Source: a virus. Taken from it: DNA of 62,718 nt. The notes below the pieces were generated by a model, which was not told the DNA's origin, did no database searches, and saw only the letters and a list, made by a program, of their open reading frames with translations. The first letter of the stretch is position 1. The number at the start of each line of letters is the position of its first letter. The translations under genes and the position numbers were made by a program. Shown here in pieces: positions 13,098 to 38,257 of this stretch. Where the stretch lies: the IMG/VR virus record IMGVR_UViG_3300028901_000105, positions 1 through 62,718 of that record; one strand, 5' to 3'.

Positions 13098-13126
13098 ATT
13101 ATACCGGGTATTACCCGGTATTGCAA
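13098..13126 (-). promoter_or_regulatory. Sigma70-type promoter with palindromic operator in the spacer (P1)
   Basis: The minus strand reads TTGCAA-TACCGGGTAATACCCGG-TATAAT. The 19-bp perfect palindrome TACCGGGTA-N-TACCCGGTA is at 13102-13120. Confidence 0.75.
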
Positions 13127-13160
13127 TGGGGAATGCAGAAATTGGACATGGAATGCGTTT

Positions 13161-13640
13161 TTAGCTTAAGGTCTGTGCCGTGTGAATCAGTGCAAGGGCG
13201 ATCACCATCTTACGGTTTAGGTGTTTGCCGTGTTTTAGGTATTTAGCTGCTGCTGTTTTCTCCAAAACCCCCTGTAGGGTTTTGAGTTCGCTGGCAACAT
13301 CCAACGCCCCAATCGAGCGTTCGCCCGCGTGAAGTTTTTCTTTACTGGAACTGGTTCCGGCTCGCGCGCTTAAATAGTGTTCAACATAAGATTGCCACTG
13401 TTGCGGCGAGATCGACGCAGAATCCAATGCCAGCTTCTTGATGCTAATCTCTACCAACAGCGTCAGATTTTCGCTGTAGCTAGGCAGCGGATAAGGGATA
13501 CCCGCCTCATCAGCGACATGCTGCAATTGACCACGCAACGTCTCCAATCCTCGCCCAATGGTGGTTATTTGAGGCAGGAAGGCGTCATAGAGAATGTAAA
13601 TGCTTTCGCCTTGTGGCAATCTATTTCGAACCTTATACAT
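13161..13640 (-). CDS. Hypothetical protein
   Basis: 159-aa ORF in the leftward operon. Confidence 0.65.
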   Translation of the reverse strand: MYKVRNRLPQGESIYILYDAFLPQITTIGRGLETLRGQLQHVADEAGIPYPLPSYSENLTLLVEISIKKLALDSASISPQQWQSYVEHYLSARAGTSSSKEKLHAGERSIGALDVASELKTLQGVLEKTAAAKYLKHGKHLNRKMVIALALIHTAQTLS

Positions 13641-14478
13641 GGCTGATCACCTCAGCCAGTTCATGGAGGCCAATTCGCCGCAGCGCAGCCGCGCAAGCCT
13701 TACGAACCTGCTCTGGCGTATGCGCCCACTCTGCCAGCAAAATTCCGGCTGCCTCTGCGTGAGGTGTCCCGTCCTGCAAGAAAAAGCCAGCCGCAAGTCG
13801 GACAAGTTCCTCATAGGCGCTGGTATCGGGTCGCCCTGCCTGCCCGTTACGATAAACCGTTAATGGCAATGGTGGGTCAGCATACACCACCCGACACTCA
13901 AGACCGTCCTTTTTCTCGGCAGTGACATATTCGTAGGCGACCTGCGCCGCGTCTTCATAATCGGCAAACCGCCGCTCAACCGCCAGTTCCCAATCCAACT
14001 GCTGGCCGTCCGCAAAGGTGGGTGAAATCCGCTTCTGGATGATGAACAGTGCTTCCGGCAAGCTCTCATCTGAGTCTATGCCTACAAAACCGGGGGTCGC
14101 TACCCGCGTCCCATTAAGCGCATTCTCAACATACCGCTGCCCGAAATCAAACACCGGAAATCGGGGCAATACCAAGCCATCTGGGACAACTCGGAAAACG
14201 TTGGCATTGGTCACACTGAACCGCCGGGCGGTCGCTTCCGCTTCCGCTTCATCGGGTTTGGTATCCACCGTCACCCAAACGACTTCTTTTTCCACCTTCT
14301 TCGGCACTTGGATGAGATAATCACCACCAACAGCAGCAAATCCCTGAGCAGTTAGTTTGTGATCTTCAGTCAAGTACCCCTTGCTGACAGCCAACTTGAG
14401 CGCCGCCGCTTGAATATGCGAAACGTCACCTTGCTTGGCAGCGTTCAACACCGCTTGCATTTTTGGCGATAGTGCCAA
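13633..14478 (-). CDS. Hypothetical protein
   Basis: 281-aa ORF with an 8-nt overlap with the downstream gene. Confidence 0.7.
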   Translation of the reverse strand: MALSPKMQAVLNAAKQGDVSHIQAAALKLAVSKGYLTEDHKLTAQGFAAVGGDYLIQVPKKVEKEVVWVTVDTKPDEAEAEATARRFSVTNANVFRVVPDGLVLPRFPVFDFGQRYVENALNGTRVATPGFVGIDSDESLPEALFIIQKRISPTFADGQQLDWELAVERRFADYEDAAQVAYEYVTAEKKDGLECRVVYADPPLPLTVYRNGQAGRPDTSAYEELVRLAAGFFLQDGTPHAEAAGILLAEWAHTPEQVRKACAAALRRIGLHELAEVISHV

Positions 14479-14494
14479 TTTAACACCTTTCTAA

Positions 14495-14698
14495 CTAGTT
14501 CTCAACCGAATGGTTGTTCTGGTCATCCCCAACGGGTTTCATTTCGCGGGTGCGGAATATATCCTCATCCGAGTCGTCTACCTGTGTTTCAATGGGACTG
14601 TTTGTTATTTGGTCAAACAGTCCCATATGCCACATGTGCTTCAGCCACGCGATATAGCCCCTTGATGAGATCGTATTCGCGTCCTTAGGAGGCCACAT
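14495..14698 (-). CDS. Hypothetical acidic protein
   Basis: Internal ATG (MWPPKD...) overlapping the stop of 14685..14951. 67 aa. Confidence 0.5.
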   Translation of the reverse strand: MWPPKDANTISSRGYIAWLKHMWHMGLFDQITNSPIETQVDDSDEDIFRTREMKPVGDDQNNHSVEN

Positions 14699-14951
14699 CG
14701 GTATCCTCCACCACAATGGGCAAACGGCCATGCTGGTAGGTGTAGCGGCAGTCCGCGAAAAACTGCTGTGCGCTCTCCAATCCACATTCCTTCGATTCGC
14801 TCCGCAGTCCCGCTTTCAAATACGGAATGCGCTGCTTGAGGGCTTCTATCGCTACGGGGTCAATGTGGGCGAACATGTCACTGGCAAGCAAGGCCAAGTG
14901 GTTTTCCAGCGATACCGATGCGTAATCAACTTCCTGCTGTATAGTAGTCAT
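14685..14951 (-). CDS. Hypothetical protein
   Basis: 88-aa ORF, first gene after the promoter at 15024-15052. Confidence 0.65.
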   Translation of the reverse strand: MTTIQQEVDYASVSLENHLALLASDMFAHIDPVAIEALKQRIPYLKAGLRSESKECGLESAQQFFADCRYTYQHGRLPIVVEDTDVAS

Positions 14952-15023
14952 AGCCCTACCTCACTAGGGTTAGCAGCAGTCATCGTTGTCGCAATCGGTG
15001 GCTGCTGCGCTTCATTTGATTCT

Positions 15024-15052
15024 ATGTTACCGGGTAATACCCGGTATGTCAA
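15024..15052 (-). promoter_or_regulatory. Sigma70-type promoter with palindromic operator in the spacer (P2)
   Basis: The minus strand reads TTGACA-TACCGGGTATTACCCGG-TAACAT. The palindrome is at 15028-15046. Confidence 0.7.
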
Positions 15053-15057
15053 ATTAA

Positions 15058-15087
15058 GAAAAAAGGCGATTGTCAAAAATCGCCTTT
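15058..15087 (-). terminator. Rho-independent terminator after the primase operon
   Basis: aaaggcgat/atcgccttt 9-bp stem, followed on the minus strand by a T run. It sits just upstream (in transcription order) of P2. Confidence 0.7.
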
Positions 15088-15172
15088 CGGGGTATGCTCT
15101 GAGGTGTGACATCTCAGCGGCTTTAGGGCTGTCGAGAAACCAACGCGCCTCGGATTTCCGGGGCGTTTTGGT

Positions 15173-18360: not shown

Positions 18361-18368
18361 GATGCCCC

Positions 18369-19409: not shown

Positions 19410-19570
19410 GATAGAACCCTCGTTCTAAGGTCTATAGGTAATTTTAATCTAGTTCCAACCTTTCTACTTGCACGAACAGCAATCCTGCGCTATTCTGTAG
19501 TCAGGTGGAGGTAGTGATAACTATTCCGCCAGCGGTCGCCTAAACCGCAAGCCCGATGTGCATACACCCG

Positions 19571-19590
19571 AAGCCCCCTATGGGGGTTTT
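19571..19590 (+). terminator. Plus-strand GC hairpin plus T run inside the minus-strand operon
   Basis: aagccccc-tat-gggggtttt. A paralogous element is at 22044-22065. Confidence 0.4.
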
Positions 19591-19707
19591 CGCATTCTAT
19601 GGGGACATTGTTACGCTCCACACTTAAGGTATGTTTAAATGTACCTTATTGCGGTGGGGAGAGCAAATTACCCTCCCCTTCCCCATTCGGATGTATGCAA
19701 AATCCGC

Positions 19708-20418: not shown

Positions 20419-20468
20419 GGTTTACCTCGTATGTCTGGTTAAGGGGGTATGACACCCCCTGCGAATGG

Positions 20469-21980: not shown

Positions 21981-22043
21981 GTTAATGTACTCTCTTTCTT
22001 GAGGCAGGTAGCCAGCTCTCCAAAGTTAGACTACCCACCTCGG

Positions 22044-22065
22044 AGACCCCCAAATGGGGGTTTTT
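22044..22065 (+). terminator. Plus-strand GC hairpin plus T run inside the minus-strand operon
   Basis: agaccccc-aaat-gggggttttt. Similar to 19571-19590. Confidence 0.4.
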
Positions 22066-22066
22066 C

Positions 22067-22660: not shown

Positions 22661-22922
22661 ACGGCTCTCCTTCTCGTGGCACTAATACAACGACTTGATT
22701 CACCGATACGCAGATGGTTTTGACCATCGGGTATCCCTGCTTGTCACTACCCATGCAGAACAGGTTGTAGGCAACCGGTTCGCGCGGCTCGAAGATGGTG
22801 TTGTAAACGGGCGCTGCCCCAATGACTTCCGGCGCACCCGGACCCATCAGGACGACATGAACATCATCGGGAATGCGGTTCATGTGAACATCTGCGGGGA
22901 ATACGCCTAGAAATACGTGCAT
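22650..22922 (-). CDS. Hypothetical protein
   Basis: Internal ATG (MHVFLGV...) overlapping the upstream stop (TGATG). 90 aa. Confidence 0.55.
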   Translation of the reverse strand: MHVFLGVFPADVHMNRIPDDVHVVLMGPGAPEVIGAAPVYNTIFEPREPVAYNLFCMGSDKQGYPMVKTICVSVNQVVVLVPREGEPYVN

Positions 22923-23387: not shown

Positions 23388-23681
23388 TTATTTGTAGACA
23401 TGATCTCCTTTCGGGACGGGCAAAAGATGTTCGGGGACATCGTAGAATTTGCCCGTGTATGCGGGGGCAAGCTGTGCGACCTTTGGCGTATGCGCCGCAA
23501 AATACCGCGCCAGATCGCTTAAGAGTTGATCGCTGATCTCGTCAATGAAGAATGGGTCAGGCTCTTGGTCGATCCCTTTTTCTTCGCAGATTTCCCACGC
23601 AGTGGTGACGGCGAAATCCCGGATTTGTTCCCGCAGTTCATGCAGAAACACGACACATTCGACGGATAAATCGTAAGACAC
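23388..23681 (-). CDS. Hypothetical acidic protein (first gene of the leftward early block)
   Basis: 97 aa. GTG start with GAAAGG upstream. Confidence 0.6.
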   Translation of the reverse strand: MSYDLSVECVVFLHELREQIRDFAVTTAWEICEEKGIDQEPDPFFIDEISDQLLSDLARYFAAHTPKVAQLAPAYTGKFYDVPEHLLPVPKGDHVYK

Positions 23682-23897
23682 AGGCGACCTTTCTAACTAG
23701 ATGCCGTCCCAATGCGACTTGAGACGGCCTCGGTTGGTGGACACCCCGCCCGCCTACGCCCCTATGTGGAGAGTCGGTAGCGCTGCGAACGGGTGGTTAT
23801 GTAGTGTCATTAGCATTGACACGTTGTTAGAACTTACTGCACCCCTATCACCTTAAAGAGCTTTATAGGTGGTATGATTATGAGTGTGCATGTCATA

Positions 23898-23974
23898 GTA
23901 TGAATTGTATGACTTGTATGACTTTCAGTCAAGTATGAAAAATGATACTAGTATGCCTTGACACATTAGTATGC
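23898..23974. promoter_or_regulatory. Array of six GTATG(A/C) repeats (operator-like) in the divergent control region
   Basis: Copies start at 23898, 23907, 23916, 23933, 23951 and 23969. Includes the ATACTAGTAT palindrome. Confidence 0.55.
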
Positions 23975-23986
23975 CTCGTTTACAAT
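23958..23986 (+). promoter_or_regulatory. Rightward promoter TTGACA-N17-TACAAT
   Basis: ccTTGACAcattagtatgcctcgttTACAAT. Two GTATGC repeats overlap it. The ATG at 23999 is only about 6 nt from the expected transcription start. Confidence 0.55.
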
Positions 23987-23998
23987 AAAGGAGAACAA

Positions 23999-24220
23999 AT
24001 GTCTCAAAAATCTGAAGGAAAGAAAATGACGACTATCAAGGTTAGCGTTGAAGTCGCAGCAGTTATCTCAAATACCGTTCGTCGCTTGAAGGCCCAGGGT
24101 CGCAAGTCACTGACCGCAGATCAATTCCTGCTGGAACTGATGGAGGAAAAATTCCCTGAGGATACAAAACTGATTCTTAATGTCCCAAAACGAGAACAAG
24201 GCAAGGGTCAGCAGAACTAA
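23999..24220 (+). CDS. Small DNA-binding protein, possibly ribbon-helix-helix
   Basis: Internal ATG after AAGGAG. TTIKVSVEVAAVISNTVRRL fits a beta-strand plus helix pattern. Confidence 0.45.
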   Translation: MSQKSEGKKMTTIKVSVEVAAVISNTVRRLKAQGRKSLTADQFLLELMEEKFPEDTKLILNVPKREQGKGQQN

Positions 24221-24248: not shown

Positions 24249-24464
24249 ATGACTAAAAGAAGCGGTTACGTAAGGGTCAAGTCAAGGACGCATATCGCGA
24301 TTAATATGATTGCGGCAGAAATGCAGATGAAGACAGGCAAAAGTCATTCTGCTGATACAGCAATCTGGGATTTAATACAAAAAGTCAGGGCCGATATAGC
24401 TGCACTGGCCGCAGCTAAGGCCAAAGAATCTGAACAAGAAGATGACAATGACGAACAGGAGTGA
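24249..24464 (+). CDS. Small protein, possibly ribbon-helix-helix, with acidic tail
   Basis: 71 aa. YVRVKSRTHIAINMIAAEM pattern. Confidence 0.4.
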   Translation: MTKRSGYVRVKSRTHIAINMIAAEMQMKTGKSHSADTAIWDLIQKVRADIAALAAAKAKESEQEDDNDEQE

Positions 24465-27482: not shown

Positions 27483-27947
27483 TTACTTTTCTAGCCGCCC
27501 AATTTCTCGATTGAGCTTGTCGATTTTTTCTTGGGCGCTGGCGAGTTGCTCCTCTGTACGCTTGAGCAAGGCTCTCAGTTCGATGTTCTCGTTCTCGAAC
27601 GGCAGCAGTCGTTCAACCTCTGCGGACAATTCGGTTACCCGCCTTTCAAGCAGCACCATTTGCATTGTGGTCTGGCTGATGGCGGTTTGCATTCCGGGTG
27701 GCGTTCCGCGTTGGCCGTTTGTGAGTGCCAAATGGATTTCATCGAAGATGACTCCGCGTTCCTTCATTTCGGCAATCAGGGCAAAAACGGTCAGGTCATC
27801 TTCTGTGTACTGGCGGTGCTTTCCTTTTTGACCGGGGGCAGCACTTGGCGATAGATACTGTGCGAATTCAATAGCCCACTGGCGCACAGTTTCCTTGCTG
27901 ATGCCAAAAAGTTCCATGAGTTCGTTGGGTGTGTAGATCATACCCAA
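27483..27947 (-). CDS. MerR-family HTH transcriptional regulator with C-terminal coiled coil
   Basis: YTPNELMELFGISKETVRQWAIEF...RQYTEDDLTVFALIAEMKERG is a typical MerR N-terminal domain. It is the lone minus-strand gene in a plus block. TTG start, or ATG at 27941. Confidence 0.7.
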   Translation of the reverse strand: MGMIYTPNELMELFGISKETVRQWAIEFAQYLSPSAAPGQKGKHRQYTEDDLTVFALIAEMKERGVIFDEIHLALTNGQRGTPPGMQTAISQTTMQMVLLERRVTELSAEVERLLPFENENIELRALLKRTEEQLASAQEKIDKLNREIGRLEK

Positions 27948-28123
27948 AGATTACAGCACAATCGCTACCTTGTACCAGCTTGCTTTTAATGTGGGTTTAG
28001 ACGGTCAATATGTACAAAGAATACCCGTTCTATTGCGGGAGAAAGGCAATCTATGGCACAGTAAATCCAATGTGGCAACCTAACGACAATATAATCGCAA
28101 AGTATGACCAATCGTAAAAAAAG

Positions 28124-28160
28124 CCCCTCTTTTAATGGAAGAATTAACCATTAAAAGGGG
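28124..28160. other. Long imperfect hairpin immediately upstream of the ParM-like gene
   Basis: cccctcttttaatgg / ccattaaaagggg form about 13 bp with two bulges, preceded by an A7 run. Confidence 0.5.
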
Positions 28161-28181
28161 TATCAAACAGGAGCAAAGAAT

Positions 28182-29477
28182 ATGACTGCGAAACTACCAA
28201 AGGCCAAGAAGGAAAAGAAAGTTGACATCCCGATCTACACTGCGGCTTCACGTGTTAATGTGAGTGACGACGACCGTGAACGTTTGAAAGGTGTGGTCGG
28301 TTATGAAGGCGGGAATGGAAAGGGTGGCATTATCTTCTTAAACAAGAAGGGATTGCTTCAACGAACCATCCTGCCAAATGCCCGTATTCGCGTTACAGGT
28401 GATCGTCTGGCAGGTGATCGCGTCGGCGTGCGCGTCCCCTATGCACAGGTAGGCATGGATAAGTGGGGTTATTCAGATGCTTTATGGCACATCTCCGGGC
28501 GGGTTGACACTTTTCAAAGTTCGCCTGAGCGGTATGGCTCACCAGAGCACGTATTCCCGTTGCTGGTCATGATGGCCGAAAACGATCTTGCAGACGGTGC
28601 GTATGCTTTGTTGGTCACTGTTCCGCCCGGCTACTACAACAGTGTGATGAATCAGGTTGAAGAAGGGTTTAGCCGCGGCGAAGTCATGGACATAAACGGT
28701 CGTAAAGAATACACCGGGCAATGGACAATCACCCTGTCTAAAGATGAAAAGCGGCGTACCTATGCATTCCCGCGAGTCTTTGTGACCATGGAAGCGGCAG
28801 ACGCTGGTTATGCAGCGTTTCGGTATGACCTCCAAGGTAATGTTGTGAAGAAGCGGGGCGCAGACGGTTTCGATTTTCTGGGTGGGCGCGTTCGCGTCGT
28901 TGACTTGGGATTTGGGACTTGTGATACCCCAACCCTTATCGATTCTAAGCTGCTCGAAGATGGATTGAGCCGGGCCAGTGATGCTCAAGGTGGCATTCTG
29001 GTCAATATCGCTGAACCAATCATGGGTCAGGTCGTTGAACAGATTCCCGAAACACGGGACTGGCTAACGACAGCCCACGTTGATTACTGGTTGCGTCGGT
29101 ATGCTACAGGCTTCACGGACGCAGAAGGTAAAACCGTTAGGCCGTGGACGTCAGAAGCTGCTCAGGTGAGCATATCTGGCAAGATTCTGCATTTGCATTC
29201 CGCCTTTGAGCATTATGCGGAACAGTACGCCCGCTATGCTTATCGCCAGATACTGGCGGCTTCCACTGAGCAGAGCGATGTTGCGTTGGCAATTGGCGGC
29301 GGATGGCTGTATGCCATTAACCACGTGCAGCGCTGGTACAAAGAATCCGGTCTGGTGATGCAGTTCTTTACCCATCAGGATGTGCCACACCTGAAGGATT
29401 TCAGCTTCGTTGACATCAATCTTGCTGGACTTATGGCACTGGCGATTGTGTTGATCCGGGAAGGGGTCTTATCATGA
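28182..29477 (+). CDS. Actin-like segregation ATPase (ParM/StbA-like)
   Basis: RVVDLGFGTCDTP (phosphate-2 DxGxGTxD) and LAIGGGWLYA (adenosine motif). 431 aa, followed by a small RHH-like gene. Confidence 0.55.
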   Translation: MTAKLPKAKKEKKVDIPIYTAASRVNVSDDDRERLKGVVGYEGGNGKGGIIFLNKKGLLQRTILPNARIRVTGDRLAGDRVGVRVPYAQVGMDKWGYSDALWHISGRVDTFQSSPERYGSPEHVFPLLVMMAENDLADGAYALLVTVPPGYYNSVMNQVEEGFSRGEVMDINGRKEYTGQWTITLSKDEKRRTYAFPRVFVTMEAADAGYAAFRYDLQGNVVKKRGADGFDFLGGRVRVVDLGFGTCDTPTLIDSKLLEDGLSRASDAQGGILVNIAEPIMGQVVEQIPETRDWLTTAHVDYWLRRYATGFTDAEGKTVRPWTSEAAQVSISGKILHLHSAFEHYAEQYARYAYRQILAASTEQSDVALAIGGGWLYAINHVQRWYKESGLVMQFFTHQDVPHLKDFSFVDINLAGLMALAIVLIREGVLS

Positions 29478-29869
29478 TACCGCAGCGCCGTCCGCCGAAT
29501 GGTTCGGGTACATCAGGGACAGTGACACTGGAACTGAACCTAAATGATCCAACGCAGCGCCGCGCCTATGAGGTTGCGTGCAGACTTGCCATTCCGCACG
29601 GGCGGCGAAAAGCGCTGTTGGTTCAGATATTAAATGCCCTCGGCGATTTTGAGGAGCGGACGAATAAGTTGCCGACGGCGGAATTGTTGTCTGCGTCGAT
29701 CATGGCTGCCGCTTTTCTGGGACGGCTAGTAATGGGAACGGGGGCGCAAGTAGATGCGCCCCCTCCGCCTCCGGGTAAGATTCTCGTTGGGACAGCTGCC
29801 AAACCGGACGAAGAACAATCCGCGAAGGTGTTTTCGTCCGGGTTTGCAAGCCGTTTCAAGAAAAACTAG
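29474..29869 (+). CDS. ParR-like RHH adaptor (putative)
   Basis: ATGA overlap with the ParM-like gene. VTLELNLNDPTQRRAYEVACRL fits a beta-strand plus helix pattern. The C-terminal half is disordered. Confidence 0.4.
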   Translation: MIPQRRPPNGSGTSGTVTLELNLNDPTQRRAYEVACRLAIPHGRRKALLVQILNALGDFEERTNKLPTAELLSASIMAAAFLGRLVMGTGAQVDAPPPPPGKILVGTAAKPDEEQSAKVFSSGFASRFKKN

Positions 29870-29904
29870 GTATACTATAAGATCATTTGTGCGTAAGGTG
29901 AGCC

Positions 29905-31323
29905 ATGAATCTAGACCTCGAAAACAAACTTTCCATCACGGTAGACGATCTTGTGAGCCAACGTATTGCTGTGCTGGGTGCGTCGGGTATGGGCAAAAGC
30001 AACACGGTTGCGCTGCTTTTGGAAAACCTGATTCCGCAGTGGCCGTTTGTGATCTTCGATATTCACGACGAATATTGGGGACTGCTTGAACAGTTCCCGA
30101 TGCTGCGGGTCGGTAAACCCTGTCCATATGGGGACGATAAATCACCCGCCATCCAGCTTGAAGCTGGCCCGGATGAAGCGGCCAAGATCGCAGACCTGTC
30201 TTACGACAAACGGCTTTCGGTGCAGGTCAATATGCTGTATATGAACCCGGACGAACGGTTGGAATTTGTGCATAACTATTGCGCCCGAATTTGGCAGCGT
30301 AATATGGTGGCGCGAACTCCGTATGGGGTGGTGCTGGAAGAAGCCCAAAACTTTATTCCGCAGCTTGGCAACAGCGAAGCACTGTTGCTGATGAAACGCT
30401 TTGCGCTGGAAGGGCGCAAGTTTGGATTCACCGTCGTGATTTCGTCGCAGCGTTCCAGCGAAATCCACAAAACGGTTCTCGGCATGTGCGGGGTGGCGTT
30501 TCTGCATGGGGTTGATATTTACAATGATGTGCAAGCCTATCAGGGGATGCTGCCGTGGACGTTTAGCGAAACCAAAAAGATAGCCTTGTCGCTTTCCGTA
30601 GGGCAGGCGATTGTCAAATGGAAACGCAAGGGGGTTAAGTTCTATGAAACCGCAAGTATTTGCCCACGCCAGACGCTGCATGTGGGTGACACGCCGGGGC
30701 TTGAAACCCGCGAGGCGGTATCGCTGAAACCGATTGACCCTGATCTCATTGACGAACTTCGCCAGCAGCTTCAGGCGGTTGCGGCAGATGAGACGGTTGA
30801 TGAAACCACGCGCGAGATTCAACGGCTAAAAGACCTTGTAGCCAAGCTGGAAGGCGAGAAACAGGCATTGGCTAAAGAACTCGCTGTGCGTCCAGTTGCC
30901 GTCCAGCAGACGTTTTTAAATGACGAAGAACAGGTCGAAATGGTGCGGGTGGAGGAACGTACCACCACCACCTATCGGTCGAGCAGGGCTGTCAATCTGG
31001 CGGTCAAACGCCAAGAAGCGGTTTTTGCCAATTACCTGACACAGTTACGGGGACTGAGTAAATCCCAACACCGGGTCTTGGCCTATTTCATGGAAGATGA
31101 AAGCCGGATTGTCGGGGCAGAAGTGATTGCCCGTGCGTGGGATTATCAGGTGGGAACCGTCCAGAACGTATTCACCAAGCTGGTGAATATGGGATGGCTG
31201 ATGCGGGTAGGGGGTGGCAAATACAAATGCCAAGTGACCTATCGCATAAAAGAAGAATTTGCCGATCTCGTCCCGGAGGACTTGATTCAGCAAATTCTGG
31301 ATGTGCTTGATGGACGCCCCTAG
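29905..31323 (+). CDS. HerA/FtsK-superfamily (DUF87-like) ATPase with coiled coil and C-terminal winged helix
   Basis: Walker A GASGMGKSNT, then DIHDEYW, then Walker B VVLEEAQNFIPQ. The C-terminal SQHRVLAYFMEDE...VQNVFTKLVNMGWLMRV is wHTH-like. Confidence 0.6.
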   Translation: MNLDLENKLSITVDDLVSQRIAVLGASGMGKSNTVALLLENLIPQWPFVIFDIHDEYWGLLEQFPMLRVGKPCPYGDDKSPAIQLEAGPDEAAKIADLSYDKRLSVQVNMLYMNPDERLEFVHNYCARIWQRNMVARTPYGVVLEEAQNFIPQLGNSEALLLMKRFALEGRKFGFTVVISSQRSSEIHKTVLGMCGVAFLHGVDIYNDVQAYQGMLPWTFSETKKIALSLSVGQAIVKWKRKGVKFYETASICPRQTLHVGDTPGLETREAVSLKPIDPDLIDELRQQLQAVAADETVDETTREIQRLKDLVAKLEGEKQALAKELAVRPVAVQQTFLNDEEQVEMVRVEERTTTTYRSSRAVNLAVKRQEAVFANYLTQLRGLSKSQHRVLAYFMEDESRIVGAEVIARAWDYQVGTVQNVFTKLVNMGWLMRVGGGKYKCQVTYRIKEEFADLVPEDLIQQILDVLDGRP

Positions 31324-31340
31324 TGCGGGGGCGTTTTTAT
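31314..31340 (+). terminator. Rho-independent terminator
   Basis: acgcccc-tagtgcg-ggggcgt followed by tttttattt. Confidence 0.75.
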
Positions 31341-31640
31341 TTATTTCCGGCGCGTCAGCATCATTCCGACAAGGCTTTCGATGGTTTCATAGACATCTAA
31401 GTTGGCAGGGTCAACCCATTCAACAAGCCAGCCATATTCGCGTGTGAGATTGGCTCGCTCAATGGTCAATGTCGAATCGATAGCGATACGATAATTGACC
31501 AATGCGGCATCCAAAGTCATGCCTGCGGTGCTGACATCAAACGTCAATTTGCCCGGATGGTTGTGGCCGCGCTCAAGCAGCTCATCAATTTTGTCATTCC
31601 AAAGTCTTTCAAGTTCTGCTTTCTGTGTTTCGGTTAGCAT
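31341..31640 (-). CDS. Hypothetical protein
   Basis: Internal ATG (MLTETQKAELERLW) after GAGGGAA, overlapping the upstream stop. 99 aa. Confidence 0.55.
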   Translation of the reverse strand: MLTETQKAELERLWNDKIDELLERGHNHPGKLTFDVSTAGMTLDAALVNYRIAIDSTLTIERANLTREYGWLVEWVDPANLDVYETIESLVGMMLTRRK

Positions 31641-32041
31641 AATTCCCTCTGTGGTTGGGCAAACATTCGGGTCATTTCTTCGTGATGTTCTTGCCCCAAA
31701 AACACCACATAATGCGCTAGGTTCAGCAGGTAGCGATTGCGTTCTTCCCGGCGCTGGGCAACACTGCGCGTCGTGGTAATGACTCGTTCGTACCGCTGAT
31801 CGAATGCCCCGCGAACAACCGCGCCATTGGAGGGTTTCAACGCTGTGCCAACGATGAGTAGGGGGATGCGCCAGTAGATGCATACCCGCGCCACTTCCGC
31901 CTCAATGCCATAGCCGTCTCCTGTGATGATGCGGCAGCTTCCGCCGCAGGGAATGGGCATGGCATGGAGCGCAGCATTACGCGCCAATGAAATCATTTCG
32001 TCAGTAGGGCAGTCAATCCCCAGTACCAAAATATTCATCAT
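31634..32041 (-). CDS. SLOG / DUF2493-like protein
   Basis: ATGA overlap with the upstream gene. ILVLG...IITGDGYGIEAEVARVCIYWRIPLLIVG resembles the DUF2493 Rossmann-like pattern. Confidence 0.4.
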   Translation of the reverse strand: MMNILVLGIDCPTDEMISLARNAALHAMPIPCGGSCRIITGDGYGIEAEVARVCIYWRIPLLIVGTALKPSNGAVVRGAFDQRYERVITTTRSVAQRREERNRYLLNLAHYVVFLGQEHHEEMTRMFAQPQRELC

Positions 32042-32238
32042 TGACGCACCCCCAAACGGCGATACACGCGCAGGTAACGGCGGCAGTAGCGCAGGCGTTC
32101 GGCCTCGGCTGTCTGGCGCAGACCGTCCTCGAAATCCTGTAGGGCAAGCTGCGTAAATGCCCCCTCGTATTGGATGATGCACTGCCGCACATTGGCGACA
32201 AGTGCATCCAGTGTCCGGCGCTCTTTACGGGTTAGCAT
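32038..32238 (-). CDS. Hypothetical small protein
   Basis: 66-aa ORF, translationally coupled on both sides. Confidence 0.55.
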   Translation of the reverse strand: MLTRKERRTLDALVANVRQCIIQYEGAFTQLALQDFEDGLRQTAEAERLRYCRRYLRVYRRLGVRQ

Positions 32239-34291
32239 GGGCTGTCTCCCGTTCGGCTTTGGCTGCTTGCAGCAGCGCGATCAGGGTATCTATTTCGTTC
32301 GGCTGAAGCTGTTCGATCAGGGCTTGCAGTCGTTGTGCGGGCGGTGTGTTTGGCACGGGCCGAATGACCACAGGCTTTAGAGGTTGGGCTGGACTGGAGT
32401 CATCCTCAAACAAGGGGGTATTTCGCAGCGCATTGAGCGCGTCATCCTCTACGGGCTTAATGGTTTCCAGCGCTTCATCCAATAGCGCCGGGTCGTTGCC
32501 ATTCGCCACTGCCAGTTTCACCGCTTCATTGCGCGGCATAGTGTAGACAACCGGAGGGGGTAGGGCGGGTGTTTCGCCCATGGGCGAAATTACCTCGAAT
32601 GTCCCTTCAATCACATCATCTTTAGGCGCAGGCAACGATTCGGTAGGCCACACCTGATCGTCAAAGTTCAACTGGACATAAGGCGGCTGGTGATTGTCGC
32701 GCAGGAAGCGGTCATTGGTGAGATACACAACGGTGGATTTGGCGCGGGTGCGGGCAACATAATCGAGATTGGTTTCCTGCTGTGAGGCTTCGGCGGTCAG
32801 TCCCGGAAACATGAGGGGCAGCTTTTCAGGCTTCAGGATGAATACCCGGTCGGCTTCTAAGCCCTTCGATTTGTGGATGGTGGATAAGATAACCTTACCA
32901 TCGGTGTTGCCATCCGAAAACAGCTTTTCAATCTCATAAATCAGTTCGTCAACAGTGGTGGCCTTGCTGCGTTCCATAATGACGCGCAAGCCTGCAACCC
33001 TGTCCTTGACGCCTTCCGCGCCTGCTTCGTCACCTTTTTTCATGAAGCGTTCAACTTCTGCTTCTTCGTAGGCAGCGAGGACATCAAGGCGTTTGTCCCA
33101 ATTCCAGTCATCCCGTTTCTGCAACTTTTCGAGCAGAGCAGTGAGGGATTTCCCGATTTCGCTGCCTAAGATGGTTGCTGGAACACCTGCTGCAAGGAAT
33201 TCGAGGATGCCCGCGACCAGTGGGGCGCGAACACGGCAGAGGATCATGTCACCGGGTTTGGCAACCTCGACCATACGCTCCTCATCAATCCACACGATTT
33301 TCCCGCGCGGCTTGTCGGGCAGGCATTGGAAGGGAGGTACAAGGCGGGCAGCATGTTCGGTGACAATCCGGGCGCAGCGGCGGGTCACAGTGAGGGGCAT
33401 CACGGTACAGTTGAATTGTTCCCGCGATAGGTCGAACGAGTCCGAATCGGCACCAGCGAAGGCATAAATCGCCTGAAATTTGTCGCCTACGAGGAAAATG
33501 CGGCCCGTGCGCCAGAGGGCTTTTGCGATCAATGCCCGCTGCATAGGGGATAGGTCTTGGGACTCGTCAACTAACACATAATTAAACTGATACATCTTGG
33601 CGTCCCACCGCACGACCCAATAGATCATATCGGTGAAGTCGATCAGCAGATTCCGGGTCTGGTTTTCCGCGACGGACATGAAGGTGGGAACGGCCTCAAC
33701 GACAACCGTGATGATACGTTCGTCGTTAAAAATGTCATCATCCATGCGATACATCTGCACCAGATCACCTAATGCGCTGAAATCGTCCCATTCGACCAGC
33801 TTGTAGCGGGTGAAGGCACACAGATCAATCGCCATTTTGATGGTGTCCTTGAGCAGGTCTTTGCGAAGCTGCTCAACGCGCTTGGCGCGGTTTTCTTGGT
33901 CACCATCTTCGCCTACTTCTTCAGCGACCGCATTAATGGCTTCCATCAGGTGGGTATTGTCCTCTGCCCATGCCTGAATGATGGCGCGGTACTTGTTGCC
34001 ATCCAGCGTCAGGTCTTTGACACCCAAGTGTTTTTTGAGGGCACTGAACCCGATGCTGTGGAAGGTCTGGGTGCGGACGCCAGTCCCGGCCAGCCGCCGT
34101 TCCAGTTCCGAAACGATGTCTTTGTTAAACGCGCAGAACAATTTTGAACCCTGTGCGGGCAACTGTTTAGCGATTTCAACCAGCGTGGTTGTTTTACCTG
34201 TGCCAGCGAGGGCAGCAATCAATAGATTGTCATGGGTGGTACGAACGGCTTCCAGAATGGCAGCCTGTTCAACCGATGGTTGGAATGCCAT
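32225..34291 (-). CDS. UvrD/Rep/PcrA-like superfamily 1 DNA helicase
   Basis: AGTGKTTTLVEIA (motif I), VLVDESQDLSP (II), GDKFQAIYAFAGAD (III), TIHKSKGLEADRVFI (V/VI region). 688 aa. Confidence 0.85.
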   Translation of the reverse strand: MAFQPSVEQAAILEAVRTTHDNLLIAALAGTGKTTTLVEIAKQLPAQGSKLFCAFNKDIVSELERRLAGTGVRTQTFHSIGFSALKKHLGVKDLTLDGNKYRAIIQAWAEDNTHLMEAINAVAEEVGEDGDQENRAKRVEQLRKDLLKDTIKMAIDLCAFTRYKLVEWDDFSALGDLVQMYRMDDDIFNDERIITVVVEAVPTFMSVAENQTRNLLIDFTDMIYWVVRWDAKMYQFNYVLVDESQDLSPMQRALIAKALWRTGRIFLVGDKFQAIYAFAGADSDSFDLSREQFNCTVMPLTVTRRCARIVTEHAARLVPPFQCLPDKPRGKIVWIDEERMVEVAKPGDMILCRVRAPLVAGILEFLAAGVPATILGSEIGKSLTALLEKLQKRDDWNWDKRLDVLAAYEEAEVERFMKKGDEAGAEGVKDRVAGLRVIMERSKATTVDELIYEIEKLFSDGNTDGKVILSTIHKSKGLEADRVFILKPEKLPLMFPGLTAEASQQETNLDYVARTRAKSTVVYLTNDRFLRDNHQPPYVQLNFDDQVWPTESLPAPKDDVIEGTFEVISPMGETPALPPPVVYTMPRNEAVKLAVANGNDPALLDEALETIKPVEDDALNALRNTPLFEDDSSPAQPLKPVVIRPVPNTPPAQRLQALIEQLQPNEIDTLIALLQAAKAERETAHANP
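32573..32588. repeat. TTCGCC-CATG-GGCGAA palindrome copy 4
   Basis: Part of the 18-bp perfect palindrome tttcgcccatgggcgaaa. Reads SPMGE in the helicase. Confidence 0.9.
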
Positions 34292-34865
34292 AGGCTTCTT
34301 CCTTGTGTACGCTTAAAAATTCCCAAATGTGGGGGTGAGACTCGCCACTTTCAACCTGTTCGGCTGTCAGGACGAGCAGGGGGATACCGCGCCGCTTTAA
34401 GAGCCGCGCCTTCCGTTTGTCATTCTTGATCTTGTGGGGCAGCTTGTGGACGCCGCCGTTGATTTCAATGGCCCACATCTGCCCTCGGCAGACGACCATA
34501 AAATCAACCAAGCAGACCCACTTTTTGCGCCCGCTGGCTTTGGTTGCCAGTGCATATTCCGGCACATATTCCACGCCCAAGTCATTCAGCAGATTGGCAA
34601 CCAGCGTTTCACTTGGCATAGGATTTTTCAGGCGGTGATCCTGTACATGGCGCATCGCCCAACGCCAGCCGTATTTTTTGACCATCGCGCGAAAGCCGAG
34701 TTCAGCCTTCGCTTTTTGGCTGCACAGGAAACAAATCGACTGGCGGCGTTCGGCATCCTTCGCACTACGTTTGGACAGCCACCGCCAATCGTCGCATTCC
34801 GGGCAGTACACGTGGTACTGTCCCTCAGCATTTGGGGTCGCCCAATCAACCTTCACGTCGGTCAT
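34269..34865 (-). CDS. Vsr / DUF559-like endonuclease with N-terminal zinc ribbon
   Basis: CPEC...CFLC pair. The core LVDFMVVCRGQMWAIEINGGVHK...NDKRKARLLKRRGIPLLVL matches the DUF559/Vsr pattern (D..ExxG..H..D..R..L..G). Start taken at the internal Met (MTDVKV). Confidence 0.6.
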   Translation of the reverse strand: MTDVKVDWATPNAEGQYHVYCPECDDWRWLSKRSAKDAERRQSICFLCSQKAKAELGFRAMVKKYGWRWAMRHVQDHRLKNPMPSETLVANLLNDLGVEYVPEYALATKASGRKKWVCLVDFMVVCRGQMWAIEINGGVHKLPHKIKNDKRKARLLKRRGIPLLVLTAEQVESGESHPHIWEFLSVHKEEAYGIPTIG

Positions 34866-35106
34866 GGTGGTTCTCCCGCCATTCCCCAAAGCGGGCAAAT
34901 GAACGGTCAATCCGCGTGTAGCCCAAATGTAGGGCTGCTCGAATGGCCTGTACTGCGGTTTCGCGCCGTACAACCTGCCGACAATGCCCGTTGATCGTGC
35001 GGACAACCACAAAACTGCGGTCGCCAAACACATCCGGTTGTTCACAGCGTACAAGTTCGGCTGTGACCGTTTGCCCCCTGTACTTTCGTGTAACTTTCAC
35101 TGGCAT
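34846..35106 (-). CDS. Hypothetical protein (first gene after P3)
   Basis: Internal ATG (MPVKVTRKY) after AGGAGAG. 86 aa. Confidence 0.55.
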   Translation of the reverse strand: MPVKVTRKYRGQTVTAELVRCEQPDVFGDRSFVVVRTINGHCRQVVRRETAVQAIRAALHLGYTRIDRSFARFGEWRENHHDRREG

Positions 35107-35143
35107 AGGACTCTCCTGTGTGACATCTCTTTGAGATAAAAGG

Positions 35144-35172
35144 ATTATACCGGGTATTACCCGGTATGTCAA
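35144..35172 (-). promoter_or_regulatory. Consensus sigma70-type promoter with palindromic operator in the spacer (P3)
   Basis: The minus strand reads TTGACA-TACCGGGTAATACCCGG-TATAAT. The palindrome is at 35148-35166. Confidence 0.8.
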
Positions 35173-35185
35173 TTAAAGCCGCGCA

Positions 35186-35917
35186 CTAGGCGGCATTGCG
35201 TGTCCATTCAAAATAGGCTTCAATATCGGCTAATTTTTCAGCAGCCGCTTGTTCGCCAAGATAGCTTATAAGCCATTTAATGGGGTCTTTATTGCCTTTG
35301 GAGTGATTGCAACTCGTTTCACCCAAAACTACCTTGATGGAATGACACAGCGGTAAAACGTTCCAAGCCACATGACCGGGGTTATCGGGGCGCGAATCAC
35401 TGATTGGTATCCAGTGATCTATTGCTATTGTGCGCGATTCGCTTGCTGAACAGCCACAAATTGCACATTTGTTACCCCAATAGGTGTGCATATTTGTTAT
35501 CTGCAATGAGGTGAGGCCTGTTGGTAAACTTTTAAGTTTTGCCCGCCTCGCCCCTTGTGCAGCGCCGCGAATGAATTTGATTTTTCGGGGATTTTTTGCG
35601 TTATATTGTTGTTGCGTTTTCCGGTTTCGAATCTTATTGTCGTCAAGCCATTGTTTAATAGCGGCCTTAAAGCGCTCAGAGTTGTTCGCCCGCCACTCTT
35701 TTAGGTACTGGCGAAATTCTTCTGGATGGTTATTGCGCCATTTCCGGCTGTATTGACGTTGTTTTTCAGGGTTATGCCAATAATGTTGTCTAGAGCGTGA
35801 CTTGGCGCATGTTTTGCAGGTGTAGGTAAATCCATCCCGACTGGTTTTATCCCGGTGAAAAAATGCAGGCGTGAGTGGGAATACTTCCCCGCATTTTGAA
35901 CACTGCTTTGTGGTCAT
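35186..35917 (-). CDS. HNH endonuclease, paralog 1 (zinc-finger N-terminus, basic repeat region)
   Basis: CSKCGEVFPLTPAFF..YTCKTCA, then AIDHWIPIS..NVLPLCHS..CNHSKG (H-N-H). Paralogous to 38838..39635 and 40693..41439. Confidence 0.7.
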   Translation of the reverse strand: MTTKQCSKCGEVFPLTPAFFHRDKTSRDGFTYTCKTCAKSRSRQHYWHNPEKQRQYSRKWRNNHPEEFRQYLKEWRANNSERFKAAIKQWLDDNKIRNRKTQQQYNAKNPRKIKFIRGAAQGARRAKLKSLPTGLTSLQITNMHTYWGNKCAICGCSASESRTIAIDHWIPISDSRPDNPGHVAWNVLPLCHSIKVVLGETSCNHSKGNKDPIKWLISYLGEQAAAEKLADIEAYFEWTRNAA

Positions 35918-35932
35918 GTTACCTCTTTTGCA

Positions 35933-35991
35933 TCAAGTGATGTATCTTGATTATAGCACTTAATCAAGTTGCGTCAAGTGACTATACTTGA
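35933..35991. promoter_or_regulatory. Two 18-bp inverted-repeat operators TCAAGTGA-N2-TAT-N-CTTGA plus an extra TCAAGT half-site
   Basis: tcaagtgatgtatcttga (35933-35950) and tcaagtgactatacttga (35974-35991), in the gap between HNH-1 and the RHH gene. Confidence 0.6.
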
Positions 35992-36025
35992 TATGATGGA
36001 GAAATGATTAGCTATGGAGAAACAC

Positions 36026-36220
36026 ATGCCCAAAATCACAATTACGATTGGTCAAGGAATGGATAAAGCGTTGCGCGAAATTGCAGACGAGCGGGGTGCG
36101 CCTATCGCCATTGTTATACGACAGGCACTTGAAGCCTATTTAGCCGCACAGGGTAAGCCGATTCCAGATGAGATTAAATGGGGCGGGAATCGAAAAGGGC
36201 AGGACAAGCCTAGTAAATAG
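36026..36220 (+). CDS. Ribbon-helix-helix (CopG/Arc-like) regulator
   Basis: MPKITITIGQGMDKALREIADERGAPIAIVIRQALEAYL is a classic RHH pattern. GGAG upstream. An alternative start is at 36014. Confidence 0.65.
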   Translation: MPKITITIGQGMDKALREIADERGAPIAIVIRQALEAYLAAQGKPIPDEIKWGGNRKGQDKPSK

Positions 36221-36329
36221 GTTATCGCTATGGGGTTGTCAGGATGTACGGATAGGCTTGGTGCTGCTGATAAGGGGGTAAGGCGCGGATTACGGGAGGT
36301 GTAGGGGTTTCCATAGGGATTGTGTTGAT

Positions 36330-36358
36330 TTGACGGTATGGAACGGATGTGCTATAGT
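36330..36358 (+). promoter_or_regulatory. Promoter, GAAC-N4-GTGC family (TTGACG-N17-TATAGT)
   Basis: TTGACGgtatgGAACggatGTGCTATAGT. Confidence 0.6.
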
Positions 36359-36364
36359 CTTTTA

Positions 36365-36573
36365 TATGGCGTCGGGTTTCCTCCTGTGGTACTTCTGGCT
36401 CTCCTAAACCTGCGAATGAGAAAACTCCGCCCGACGCTATCGTGTATCGGAGAATTCCGTGTCTGGTCGCCAGTTTGCACGAGCTGACGGATAGGCATCC
36501 GGGAGCCGATGGGCGGATGAGAACCGCTAAAGCCAGTCCTCCAATTTGGGTCAACCGGGGGACTGGCTTTTTA
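36365..36573 (+). ncRNA. ~210-nt promoter- and terminator-bounded RNA of unknown class
   Basis: Lies between the promoter at 36330-36358 and the terminator at 36531-36573. Long-range helix ggcgtcggg / cccgacgct. Hairpins ctgg-tcg-ccag and catccg..cggatg. No credible plus-strand ORF. Confidence 0.5.
36531..36573. terminator. Stem-loop plus T5 (terminator of the small RNA; also at the 3' end of the convergent minus operon)
   Basis: agccagtcc / ggactggct 9-bp stem followed by tttttaatt. Confidence 0.7.
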
Positions 36574-36855
36574 ATTAGGCTGGAGCAGAGAGTTCGTTGG
36601 CGGATGCCCGCGTCGTCGCGCTGTGTGGATTGTTACGGTGATATTGACGCTCCCAACCGCATCTGTCATGTAGGTTGGTGGAATGTCTTTATTGGGAATA
36701 ATGTCATCTCGGTGCAATATCGCCAACTCATCCCCTGATATGAGGTTGACACTATCAACAGCGGGGATAAGTTGTATATCCTCGTATTCACCAGTGTCGG
36801 GATTGTAGCGACCAATTCGGGCATTGCTCATGTAGAAGATTTTATCGTCTGTCAT
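36571..36855 (-). CDS. Hypothetical protein
   Basis: 94-aa ORF with ATGA coupling to the upstream gene. Confidence 0.55.
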   Translation of the reverse strand: MTDDKIFYMSNARIGRYNPDTGEYEDIQLIPAVDSVNLISGDELAILHRDDIIPNKDIPPTYMTDAVGSVNITVTIHTARRRGHPPTNSLLQPN

Positions 36856-37259
36856 TCCTTATGCCTTTCTAGCCATGCCGAACGCATTTCACGGACTACA
36901 GTAAGCGGTAGAATTGCGACTGCGACTGCTCCTCGTTTGTCAGCGTCCGATTTCGAGTTCTCTCCAACTACAACAAAGTCATCATCATCCAGTCGCGCGT
37001 GAATGTAATGGTAAACATGGTGGATTGTATGAATAGGCCAACCCGATGATAACAACAGGTTACGGGCAACCTCAGTCATCAAAAGTCCATCACCTTCGTG
37101 TAAGCGATCTTCCTTATCAGTCCAAAAGATTTCCTCGCTGACTGATTCCGCTTGTTTAACCAATGATTCACGCTGTTTGGTAAGGTCTTTCATCAGTGCA
37201 TCAATATCTGAAATTTGCTGCCTGATCTCTGCGAGGATTTGAATATTATCTGTAGTCAT
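36852..37259 (-). CDS. Hypothetical protein
   Basis: 135-aa ORF, coupled. Confidence 0.65.
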   Translation of the reverse strand: MTTDNIQILAEIRQQISDIDALMKDLTKQRESLVKQAESVSEEIFWTDKEDRLHEGDGLLMTEVARNLLLSSGWPIHTIHHVYHYIHARLDDDDFVVVGENSKSDADKRGAVAVAILPLTVVREMRSAWLERHKE

Positions 37260-37447
37260 GCAATCTTATTCCCTTTCTCCCCGAAGCTGACACACAATGC
37301 GCCGAGCATGAAGGCAATGGGTACGATCACAGCCGCGCAACCCTGTTGAAATAGACACAACGCAATGAATAGACCAAATGCTAAGATGAGCATCAGGCCG
37401 CCGATGGCTTTGTAGTCTTTGGCGGTTAGGGGTTTGCGGGTTGTCAT
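37256..37447 (-). CDS. Small two-helix membrane protein
   Basis: 63 aa with two hydrophobic segments. Confidence 0.55.
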   Translation of the reverse strand: MTTRKPLTAKDYKAIGGLMLILAFGLFIALCLFQQGCAAVIVPIAFMLGALCVSFGEKGNKIA

Positions 37448-37746
37448 TTGCTTATCTGCATTTGGATTACGGATTCGATTTCGACAAATCCGCGATTAAA
37501 TCGAAGCCATTCAATGAAATCAGGCATCAGCTTGCCCATTTCAGAATTCGGCTGTTGGGTGAACTGCCGCCATAACTCGTCAATGTCGGGTTGAGATGGG
37601 CCGACAATCCTGAAGCTAGTGGGCGGATCATAAGACATGATGCCCAAATCAATGAAAATAAGGTAAACGGTGTATTCGATGCTTGCTAACGATTTGTCGT
37701 GCGTTCCGTCAAGCGCTTGGAACTGCCTTAAATCTTTGCCAGCCAT
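37444..37746 (-). CDS. Hypothetical protein
   Basis: 100-aa ORF, coupled. Confidence 0.6.
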   Translation of the reverse strand: MAGKDLRQFQALDGTHDKSLASIEYTVYLIFIDLGIMSYDPPTSFRIVGPSQPDIDELWRQFTQQPNSEMGKLMPDFIEWLRFNRGFVEIESVIQMQISK

Positions 37747-37755
37747 ACAACCTCC

Positions 37756-38220
37756 CTAAAACAAGGTCAACTGTTTTTCGACAGGTGCTTTGCCTATCGC
37801 GCGAATGCCATCTGCGCTTAGGTGCGTCACCTCCACATTGTAACGCGCTTCCATTTCAGCAGCGGCGGTGCTGCGGTGACAGGTGTGATGATCCGGGCAG
37901 GCACACAGCAAAATAACACTGCGCTGGTTGAGCAATTGCACAAGTCGGAAACATCCATCATCCGGGTCAACGAGTTTAATGCCCAACTCAGGATTGCGGT
38001 AATTCACATTTCCGAGTGCGCGGATGTGGACGTAACGTTCTGTAAAGCGGCGACTCAGGTTGATACCTGACCACAGCGGATTGCGCGAGTAGGGGGATAT
38101 GCGAACATCCACCAACACAGCGTCGTAATGTTCAACGGCCTTCGCCAATTCTTCTGGCTTCAGCCCTGTGTACCCAACAGTAAAAAGGGTGTTCATGTGG
38201 CGCTCCAATAACTCGATCAT
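37756..38220 (-). CDS. DUF488-family protein
   Basis: LFTVGYTGLKPEEL..VLVDVRISPYSRNP...ILLCACPDHHTCHR matches the DUF488 pattern. Confidence 0.6.
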   Translation of the reverse strand: MIELLERHMNTLFTVGYTGLKPEELAKAVEHYDAVLVDVRISPYSRNPLWSGINLSRRFTERYVHIRALGNVNYRNPELGIKLVDPDDGCFRLVQLLNQRSVILLCACPDHHTCHRSTAAAEMEARYNVEVTHLSADGIRAIGKAPVEKQLTLF

Positions 38221-38228
38221 GTGTTCTA

Positions 38229-38257
38229 ATTATACCGCGTAATAACAGTTGGAGCAA
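38229..38257 (-). promoter_or_regulatory. Sigma70-type promoter (P4), degenerate relative of P1-P3
   Basis: The minus strand reads TTGCTC-CAACTGTTATTACGCGG-TATAAT. Only one operator half-site (TACCGCGTA) is retained. Confidence 0.6.

Follow-up and report, generated by a model that had tools for sequence, protein, structure and literature searches.

A nested palindrome in the spacers of three strong phage promoters as a candidate operator of a small repressor regulon

Background

The IMG/VR virus record IMGVR_UViG_3300028901_000105, analysed here over its positions 1 to 62,718 (the window), carries on its minus strand three promoters, named P1, P2 and P3, in which the spacer between the -35 and the -10 hexamers is filled by one and the same 19-bp palindrome. 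A palindrome in such a position raises the questions of whether it is an operator, which genes it would control, and what kind of protein would read it. An earlier note on this DNA proposed that a single dimeric repressor acts on all three operons and pointed to a lone MerR-family gene as a possible source of that protein. We undertook a computational analysis of the promoters, of the operons that follow them, of the copies of the palindrome in related and unrelated DNA, and of the putative regulators encoded by the phage. On balance we find it probable that the palindrome is a repressor operator co-regulating three accessory cassettes, and that its most likely reader is a ribbon-helix-helix (RHH) protein bound as a dimer of dimers.

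Results

The same palindrome in the same register at three promoters

The window has three copies of the palindrome, TACCGGGTA-N-TACCCGGTA (Table 1), and a search allowing up to three mismatches returned the same three sites only, against an expectation of 0.00 from 100 shuffles. The register is identical in P1-P3: the 19 bp extend over the 17-bp spacer and on into the -10 box by two bases, and the centre of the palindrome falls on spacer position 10 of 17, so that the dyad is centred in the spacer. The promoters are close to the sigma-70 consensus; in a scan of the whole genome P3 is the sole site agreeing at 12 of 12 positions, and P1 and P2 agree at 10 of 12. Genes with a Shine-Dalgarno sequence start 31-66 nt downstream of the three promoters. 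Homology between the flanks of P1, P2 and P3 ends beyond ~33 bp, therefore the identity of the three sites is not the by-product of a larger duplication. The near-consensus promoters with a palindromic 17-bp spacer are thus present exactly as the earlier note had described them.

Half-sites with at most one mismatch number 22 in the window, compared with 6.4 expected, and the sole additional intergenic one, TACGCGGTA, lies within a fourth promoter, P4, whose spacer is also 17 bp long. The right half of this site matches at 8 of 9 positions and the left half at 5 of 9, which agrees with the earlier description of a promoter that keeps only one half-site; the P4 operator looks like a decayed copy. 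Four promoters of a complete genome therefore carry three identical sites and one decayed site, the pattern of a regulon with dispersed operators.

The palindrome has a second level of symmetry. Read from the sequence, each 9-bp half, TACC-S-GGTA, is itself palindromic, for which the chance is ~1/256 per given 9-mer. The operator can therefore be written as TACC-G-GGTA / N / TACC-C-GGTA, two tandem units with centres 10 bp apart, and it is also readable as four GGTA/TACC elements with 5-bp spacing.

Two other motifs touch these promoters. The exact 12-mer GAGATGTCACAC (minus strand) has two copies only in the window, one at 15104-15115, ~55 bp upstream of P2, and one at 35118-35129, in the 5' untranslated region of the P3 operon; as a meaningful element shared by P2 and P3 it was judged non-significant alone. 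A TATAGAAC / TAGAAC motif directly follows -10-like boxes in several intergenic regions (7006, 9849, 38306, 39994 and 38223-38228), P4 (TATAATTAGAAC) and the stretch in front of tRNA-Glu among them, is present in a related phage fragment (L020) too, and may mark another promoter class.

Downstream operons and their insulation

The operon structure was taken from JGI gene calls on contigs identical to parts of the window (JGI metagenome 3300028830 and one Logan assembly) and from Pfam, and it bears out that each promoter heads a leftward operon. P1 is followed by a gene for a DUF2958 and MutS_I fusion, P2 by four genes of unknown function, and P3 by a series that includes a UvrD helicase. The P3 operon had been labelled 'Vsr/UvrD': the UvrD part stands, whereas the Vsr label is weak, the 198-aa (amino acid) protein having only faint DUF2726/restriction-endonuclease-like and endonuclease-like matches (E ~5e-4) that stay below the Pfam cut-off. 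A PADLOC search for defence systems returned generic matches only (GajB-like for UvrD, HerA, mad1/mad8).

Terminators precede two of these units. An intrinsic terminator separates the primase/DnaB operon from P2, and its stem carries a compensatory change in a related phage fragment (L023); a weaker terminator-like hairpin stands just upstream of P3. Since terminators precede P2 and P3, the three cassettes are insulated transcription units that rely on their own promoters.

Table 1. Promoters, operons, terminators and candidate regulator genes in the window
Feature	Position	Strand	Description
P1	13098-13126	-	TTGCAA-TACCGGGTAATACCCGG-TATAAT (read 13126-13098); operator 13102-13120
P2	15024-15052	-	TTGACA-TACCGGGTATTACCCGG-TAACAT (read 15052-15024); operator 15028-15046
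P3	35144-35172	-	TTGACA-TACCGGGTAATACCCGG-TATAAT (read 35172-35144), 12/12 consensus; operator 35148-35166
P4	38229-38257	-	TTGCTC-17-TATAAT; putatively decayed operator, right half 38233-38241
P1 operon	10550-13059	-	93-aa gene (12778-13059); 742-aa DUF2958 + MutS_I fusion (10550-12778)
P2 operon	13161-14951	-	Four genes of unknown function: 88 aa (14685-14951), 67 aa (14495-14698), 275 aa (13633-14460), 159 aa (13161-13640)
P3 operon	31341-35106	-	86 aa (34846-35106); 198 aa (34269-34865); UvrD helicase, 688 aa (32225-34291); 3' part with 66-aa, 135-aa and 99-aa genes, the last at 31341-31640
P4 operon	36571-38220	-	DUF488 protein (37756-38220), then small genes of unknown function
Intrinsic terminator	15061-15088	-	Between primase/DnaB operon and P2; second hairpin 15145-15166
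Weak terminator-like hairpin	35178-35194	-	GCCGC...GCGGC + TTT, just upstream of P3; read from sequence
RHH gene, candidate repressor	36026-36220	+	Sole sequence-supported RHH in the genome; Pfam RHH_1 26.1 bits, cut-off 20.5
Two small early genes, candidate RHH-like repressors	23999-24220, 24249-24464	+	Adjoin GTATG(A/C) repeats, 23870-23975
MerR-fold gene, with C-terminal coiled coil	27483-27941	-	Lone gene; conserved 14-mer upstream, 27969-27982

Copies in related phages and in other DNA

A search of the genome for the pattern gives the three sites only, and a related phage, ~85% identical, keeps the two that were recovered from it on two short contigs of ENA assembly ERZ761597, L023 and L020. 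In fragment L023 the P2 site is unchanged. In fragment L020 the homology extends upstream only as far as the -35 region of P3, with unrelated DNA beyond it, and the operator differs from that of P3 in the central base alone; the two fragments together fit a central base that is free to vary and a promoter that marks the edge of a module. Both recovered sites keep 18 of the 18 specified positions and vary at the central base only.

Outside the close relatives the operator is rare. An exact 19-mer scan of 185,579 representative genomes gave 5 isolated copies, about chance level, none of them in a comparable promoter context. The same scan of metagenomes gave 18 loci, mostly hairpins within AT-rich DNA, tandem repeats or coding DNA, the relevant ones being L020, L023 and a further contig, L013. 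A looser in-register pattern had 62 matches in IMG/VR, nearly all coding, of which only two are promoter-like: L001, and the unrelated low-GC L100. A literature search for the half-site found primers only.

The contig L001/L013, 171 kb long and of high GC content, carries the exact 19-mer as TTGTCA-TACCGGGTATTACCCGG-TATGAT, directly upstream of an RHH gene that is followed by a vWA gene. Homologues of this RHH gene, 57-95% identical, occur in four more contigs (L032-L035), and in all five loci TACC(S)GGTA units lie in the spacer of the RHH gene's own promoter, in the register seen in the window. The promoter reads TTGACC-TACCCGGTATGACCCGG-TATGAT in L034 and L035, TTGTAA-TACCGGGTATTACCAAT-TACGCT in L033 and TTGTCA-TACCGGTATGACC... 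in L032. In these four the unit proximal to the -35 box is kept and the second unit varies, and in L033 and L034 the overall dyad is lost. That the unit is kept while the overall dyad is lost argues for recognition of the unit by a protein, not for a hairpin. By association, the TACC(S)GGTA site appears to be tied to RHH autoregulation in this lineage.

Candidate readers encoded by the phage

The first and last 141 bases of the window are identical (1-141 = 62578-62718), and this terminal repeat indicates that the window is a complete, circularly assembled phage genome of ~62.6 kb, in which the structural block at the end of the window runs on into the tail genes at its start. Any phage-encoded regulator must consequently lie within it. 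The genome carries tail, head and terminase genes and an integrase, has a GC content of ~52%, and its leftward replication operon (primase, DnaB) begins at divergent promoters near 23.9 kb. Megablast against cultured phages gave no close relative, and the identity of the terminase to phage records does not exceed 41%; searching IMG/VR for similar loci at the protein level, with the primase and the MutS_I fusion as queries, gave no match.

An RHH dimer has two-fold symmetry and recognises a short palindromic subsite, and neighbouring dimers lie about one helical turn apart, as in Arc, Mnt, MetJ and CopG. In a helix-turn-helix (HTH) dimer each monomer reads one half-site, internal symmetry of the half-site is not needed, and an HTH dimer requires a palindrome longer than 9 bp. 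Because each half of the operator is internally palindromic, a beta-ribbon binder of the RHH type, in the form of a dimer of dimers, is a better fit to it than a plain HTH or MerR dimer. The operator has in fact what an RHH site should have, two locally two-fold symmetric subsites spaced by about one helical turn.

The gene at 36026-36220 encodes the best supported RHH protein of the phage, with an hhalign probability of 93.9% to known RHH seed sequences. Its own promoter region (35928-35997) lacks the 19-mer and consists of two tandem promoter-like units with different dyads, ATCAAGT/ACTTGA, in 17-bp spacers; the arms of these dyads are conserved in the relative L039 and their centre varies. 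A leftward promoter, TTGACG-16-TATAAT (35977-35950), faces this control region and is aimed at the neighbouring gene. Three paralogous Cys-rich genes (35186-35917 on the minus strand, 38760-39635 and 40693-41439 on the plus strand; identities of 35% with E 5e-45 and of 28% with E 3e-27) have an HNH-like C-terminal motif seen by eye and no Pfam match. One of them lies between the RHH gene and P3 and is missing at that position in L020, as would be expected of a mobile homing-type gene.

Two further candidates are the small early genes at 23999-24220 and 24249-24464, of which the first has a predicted beta-alpha-alpha topology (predicted local distance difference test, pLDDT, 73); a Foldseek search with its monomer model was uninformative. 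At least seven (A/T)GTATG(A/C) direct repeats, at multiples of 9 bp, extend over 23870-23975 across the divergent early promoters (TTGACT-17-TACAAT leftward and TTGACA-17-TACAAT rightward), and a further copy is found at 28101, after a TATAAT box upstream of the operon at 28182.

The product of the MerR-like gene is a genuine MerR fold as judged from sequence and model, with an N-terminal winged HTH and a long dimerisation helix. It matches Pfam MerR_1 (1.3e-10), its AlphaFold2 model (pLDDT 88) has predicted helices at 5-12, 16-25, 47-61, 66-74 and 87-151, and Foldseek pairs the model with MtaN, BmrR, CvkR, CueR and SoxR at probability 1.0. The gene lies 7-14 kb from the operator sites, and the region upstream of it is free of the operator. 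A 14-mer, CAAGCTGGTACAAG, occurs once in the window, ~30-40 bp upstream of this gene, and again at 381-394 of contig L101, in the opposite orientation, upstream of a homologue that has the same residues in its recognition helix (RQWAIEF); the 14-mer is likely the protein's own operator. The nearest homologue on a long contig (45% identical; L025, a 53.8-kb phage contig) is preceded, at a distance of 94 bp, by a perfect 9-N-9 palindrome at 9889-9907, AGACGGCGA-A-TCGCCGTCT, which differs from the operator of the window and is present once in the 12.7 kb examined. No copy of the operator was found near MerR-like homologues, and the others have different palindromes upstream. The gene is divergent from an operon encoding a 431-aa protein, a 131-aa protein and a HerA-like ATPase that ends in a winged-helix region; the whole region (27483-31323) has weak PADLOC matches to mad1 and mad8 (MADS) and to HerA, and may be a defence-like module.

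Other features of the genome

Short palindromes and restriction sites are strongly avoided over the whole genome (observed versus expected: CCWGG 3 vs 157, GGCC 145 vs 313, GGTACC 0 vs 18, CCCGGG 1 vs 19, CGGCCG 0 vs 26, GCCGGC 0 vs 29, TGGCCA 0 vs 26, AAGCTT 0 vs 20), and CCSGG is not avoided. The centres of the operator units are always S, and the GGTA-W-TACC form avoids GGTACC. The same palindrome-avoiding phage also has MutS_I, nuclease-like and UvrD genes. A second palindrome, TTCGCC-N4-GGCGAA, has seven copies with at most two mismatches (0.6 expected), at 5762, 16645, 26244, 32573, 38439, 50212 and 57731, both inside genes (primase, UvrD) and after genes.

Two tRNA genes are present, tRNA-Leu(CAA) at 10376-10449 and tRNA-Glu(CTC) at 38348-38421, together with a match to the Rfam int-alpA RNA motif at 40608-40673 (41.9 bits, gathering score 35.8). 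Long non-coding stretches with GC-rich hairpin-like segments occupy 9870-10370, 19410-19700 and 23680-23860; in an Rfam search of these stretches tRNA alone reached the gathering score.

Discussion

A repressor regulon as the preferred explanation

In the mechanism that we propose, P1-P3 would be sigma-70-type promoters of near-maximal intrinsic strength with an identical operator built into the spacer. Hexamers near the consensus and optimal spacing, with P3 at full consensus, mean that these promoters should be strong without help and that no activator is needed. A repressor on the spacer would occupy the stretch from the -35 to the -10 box and keep RNA polymerase out, and the MutS_I fusion operon, the operon of four unknown genes and the nuclease-like plus UvrD operon would be switched together, either by repression in lysogeny or by an early shut-off during infection. 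The DNA-reading unit would be two-fold symmetric and of the RHH type, assembled as a dimer of dimers, and the phage's candidates for it are the products of 36026-36220, 23999-24220 and 24249-24464. We infer repression, as well as the class and identity of the binder, from sequence; the anatomy supports the combination of promoter and operator, and the single dimeric repressor for three operons, put forward earlier.

Several observations weigh against this proposal. The intergenic region of P2 is ~95% identical overall in the relative L023, so the conservation of the site there is not clearly above background. A local hidden Markov model search of the window proteins found no homologue of the L013 RHH protein, and hhalign of the 36026-36220 product against the L013 family gave a generic RHH match only (E 0.005). 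Autoregulation through the operator is not seen at this gene, and the ATCAAGT/ACTTGA dyads in its promoter would be a more natural target of its product. For the products of 23999-24220 and 24249-24464, sequence profiles gave no support as RHH proteins. The match in L013, finally, may be convergence within one operator class and not a sign of a shared regulator, which is possible because nested palindromes have a small sequence space.

Could the lone MerR-family protein bind the dyad as a dimer and repress or distort the three promoters? It has the genuine fold and a 65-residue coiled coil, its gene stands alone on the opposite strand in an arrangement that recurs in homologues, the L025 homologue has a perfect 9-N-9 palindrome 94 bp from its gene, and elimination speaks for it, since the other regulators of the genome each adjoin a different motif of their own. 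Repressors of the MerR type are known from phages and other elements: Gp36 of D29 (PMC12266134), gp1 of GIL01 (PMC11511902) and CvkR (PDB 7xn2). The earlier note had itself cautioned that MerR-activated promoters usually have spacers of 19-20 bp, and the 17 bp of P1-P3 make this caution well founded. There is moreover no operator copy near the gene, a different 14-mer common to L101 lies upstream of it, a MerR dimer leaves the internal symmetry of each half-site unexplained, and the same operator elsewhere is linked to an RHH gene in loci where no MerR gene was seen. We therefore do not retain MerR as the favoured binder and regard it as an unlikely one. A regulator encoded by the host, tying the phage operons to a host signal, has a precedent in the host LexA boxes of prophage promoters; the fact that no phage regulator can be assigned with confidence and the resemblance of the controlled genes to DNA-repair genes speak in its favour. 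The 185,579 representative genomes, with their five chance-level exact copies, speak against it, although host sites may be degenerate, and we give this explanation a small probability.

Two explanations dispense with a binding protein altogether. The palindrome might act as a nucleic-acid hairpin, whether as a cruciform or as a terminator or insulator that stops upstream read-through: in RNA it forms a stable hairpin (-12.4 to -13.7 kcal/mol), and the P1 copy, which directly follows the P2 operon, is flagged as terminator-like. A U-tract is absent at P2 and poor at P1 and P3, separate terminators already stand just upstream of P2 and P3, the placement in exact register with the -35 and -10 hexamers would have no explanation, and the L013 family loses the overall dyad (L033, L034) and keeps the TACC(S)GGTA unit; a hairpin role is very improbable in our judgement. 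Alternatively, recombination might have spread one strong promoter cassette to the three sites, the palindromic spacer having no current regulatory role. P2 and P3 do have TTAATTGACA plus the palindrome in common, and the recombination joint of L020 falls at the promoter. A perfect nested 19-bp palindrome is nevertheless kept three times in a genome that strongly avoids short palindromes, P4 shows how decay looks, and an unregulated promoter with 12 of 12 consensus positions would be costly, so that we see hardly any room for this explanation.

The preferred explanation, a repressor operator read by an RHH-type dimer of dimers, can be carried further in a bolder form. TACC-S-GGTA in two units might be a portable RHH-type promoter-operator cassette common to unrelated phage lineages, namely this ~52% GC phage and the high-GC RHH/vWA loci, which here would gate an immediate-early repair/anti-restriction regulon (MutS_I fusion, nuclease-like + UvrD) shut off by an early RHH-like protein, in a genome elsewhere depleted of restriction palindromes; we offer this extension as speculation that is unlikely to hold. 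If the repressor regulon is real, it would be small and sharply delimited in a phage without close cultured relatives, and it would place three insulated accessory cassettes, including the unusual MutS_I fusion and the nuclease-like plus UvrD module, under one switch, thereby showing when poorly understood accessory genes are used. The nested symmetry predicts the class of the repressor. The value of the finding lies in annotation, not in a new principle.

Comparison with known systems

Arc and Mnt of phage P22, both small RHH repressors, bind as tetramers to symmetric operators of ~17-21 bp within or overlapping a strong promoter and repress by occlusion. The likeness to their action at Pant/Pmnt lies in the symmetric operator within a strong promoter and in occlusion, which is proposed here; P22, however, has one control region beside the repressor genes, whereas in the window three identical operators are dispersed over unrelated operons and no repressor gene is adjacent. 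MetJ of E. coli reads met boxes, tandem short palindromes (AGACGTCT) each bound by one RHH dimer, cooperatively and at several promoters. The present operator is likewise built of tandem short palindromes at several promoters, but its units are of 9 bp with a 10-bp period and exactly two per site, in contrast to the abutting 8-bp units, the co-repressor and the host regulon of MetJ.

Other systems resemble the locus in part. In the promoters activated by MerR proteins (Pmer, PcopA, PsoxS) the dyad is also centred in the spacer, and a MerR-fold protein is present in this genome; those spacers are over-long at 19-20 bp, whereas here they are of 17 bp between near-consensus hexamers and the regulator gene is not adjacent. 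The operators of phage P1 C1 and of IncP KorA/KorB show how one repressor can serve scattered operons through operator copies that overlap promoters, but the P1 operators are asymmetric and numerous, the KorA sites overlap the -10 box, and the repressors of both systems are known. The RHH and vWA loci (L013, L032-L035) share with the window the TACC(S)GGTA units in the same register of a 17-bp spacer, and the 19-mer of L013 is identical; they differ in that each locus has a single site, immediately before the RHH gene, a leaderless transcript and a variable second unit.

The nearest geometry is that of the synthetic promoters PLtetO-1 and PLlacO-1, strong promoters that are tightly repressed through a 19-bp palindromic operator filling their 17-bp spacer. 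These are engineered and respond to an HTH repressor, TetR or LacI, whereas P1-P3 are natural, and the promoter-operator unit described here would be a compact natural analogue of such tightly repressible promoters. Placing an operator inside a strong promoter's spacer is a known regulatory design, found here in a new phage; what the present analysis appears to add to it is the nested symmetry of the operator and a link across lineages to RHH genes.

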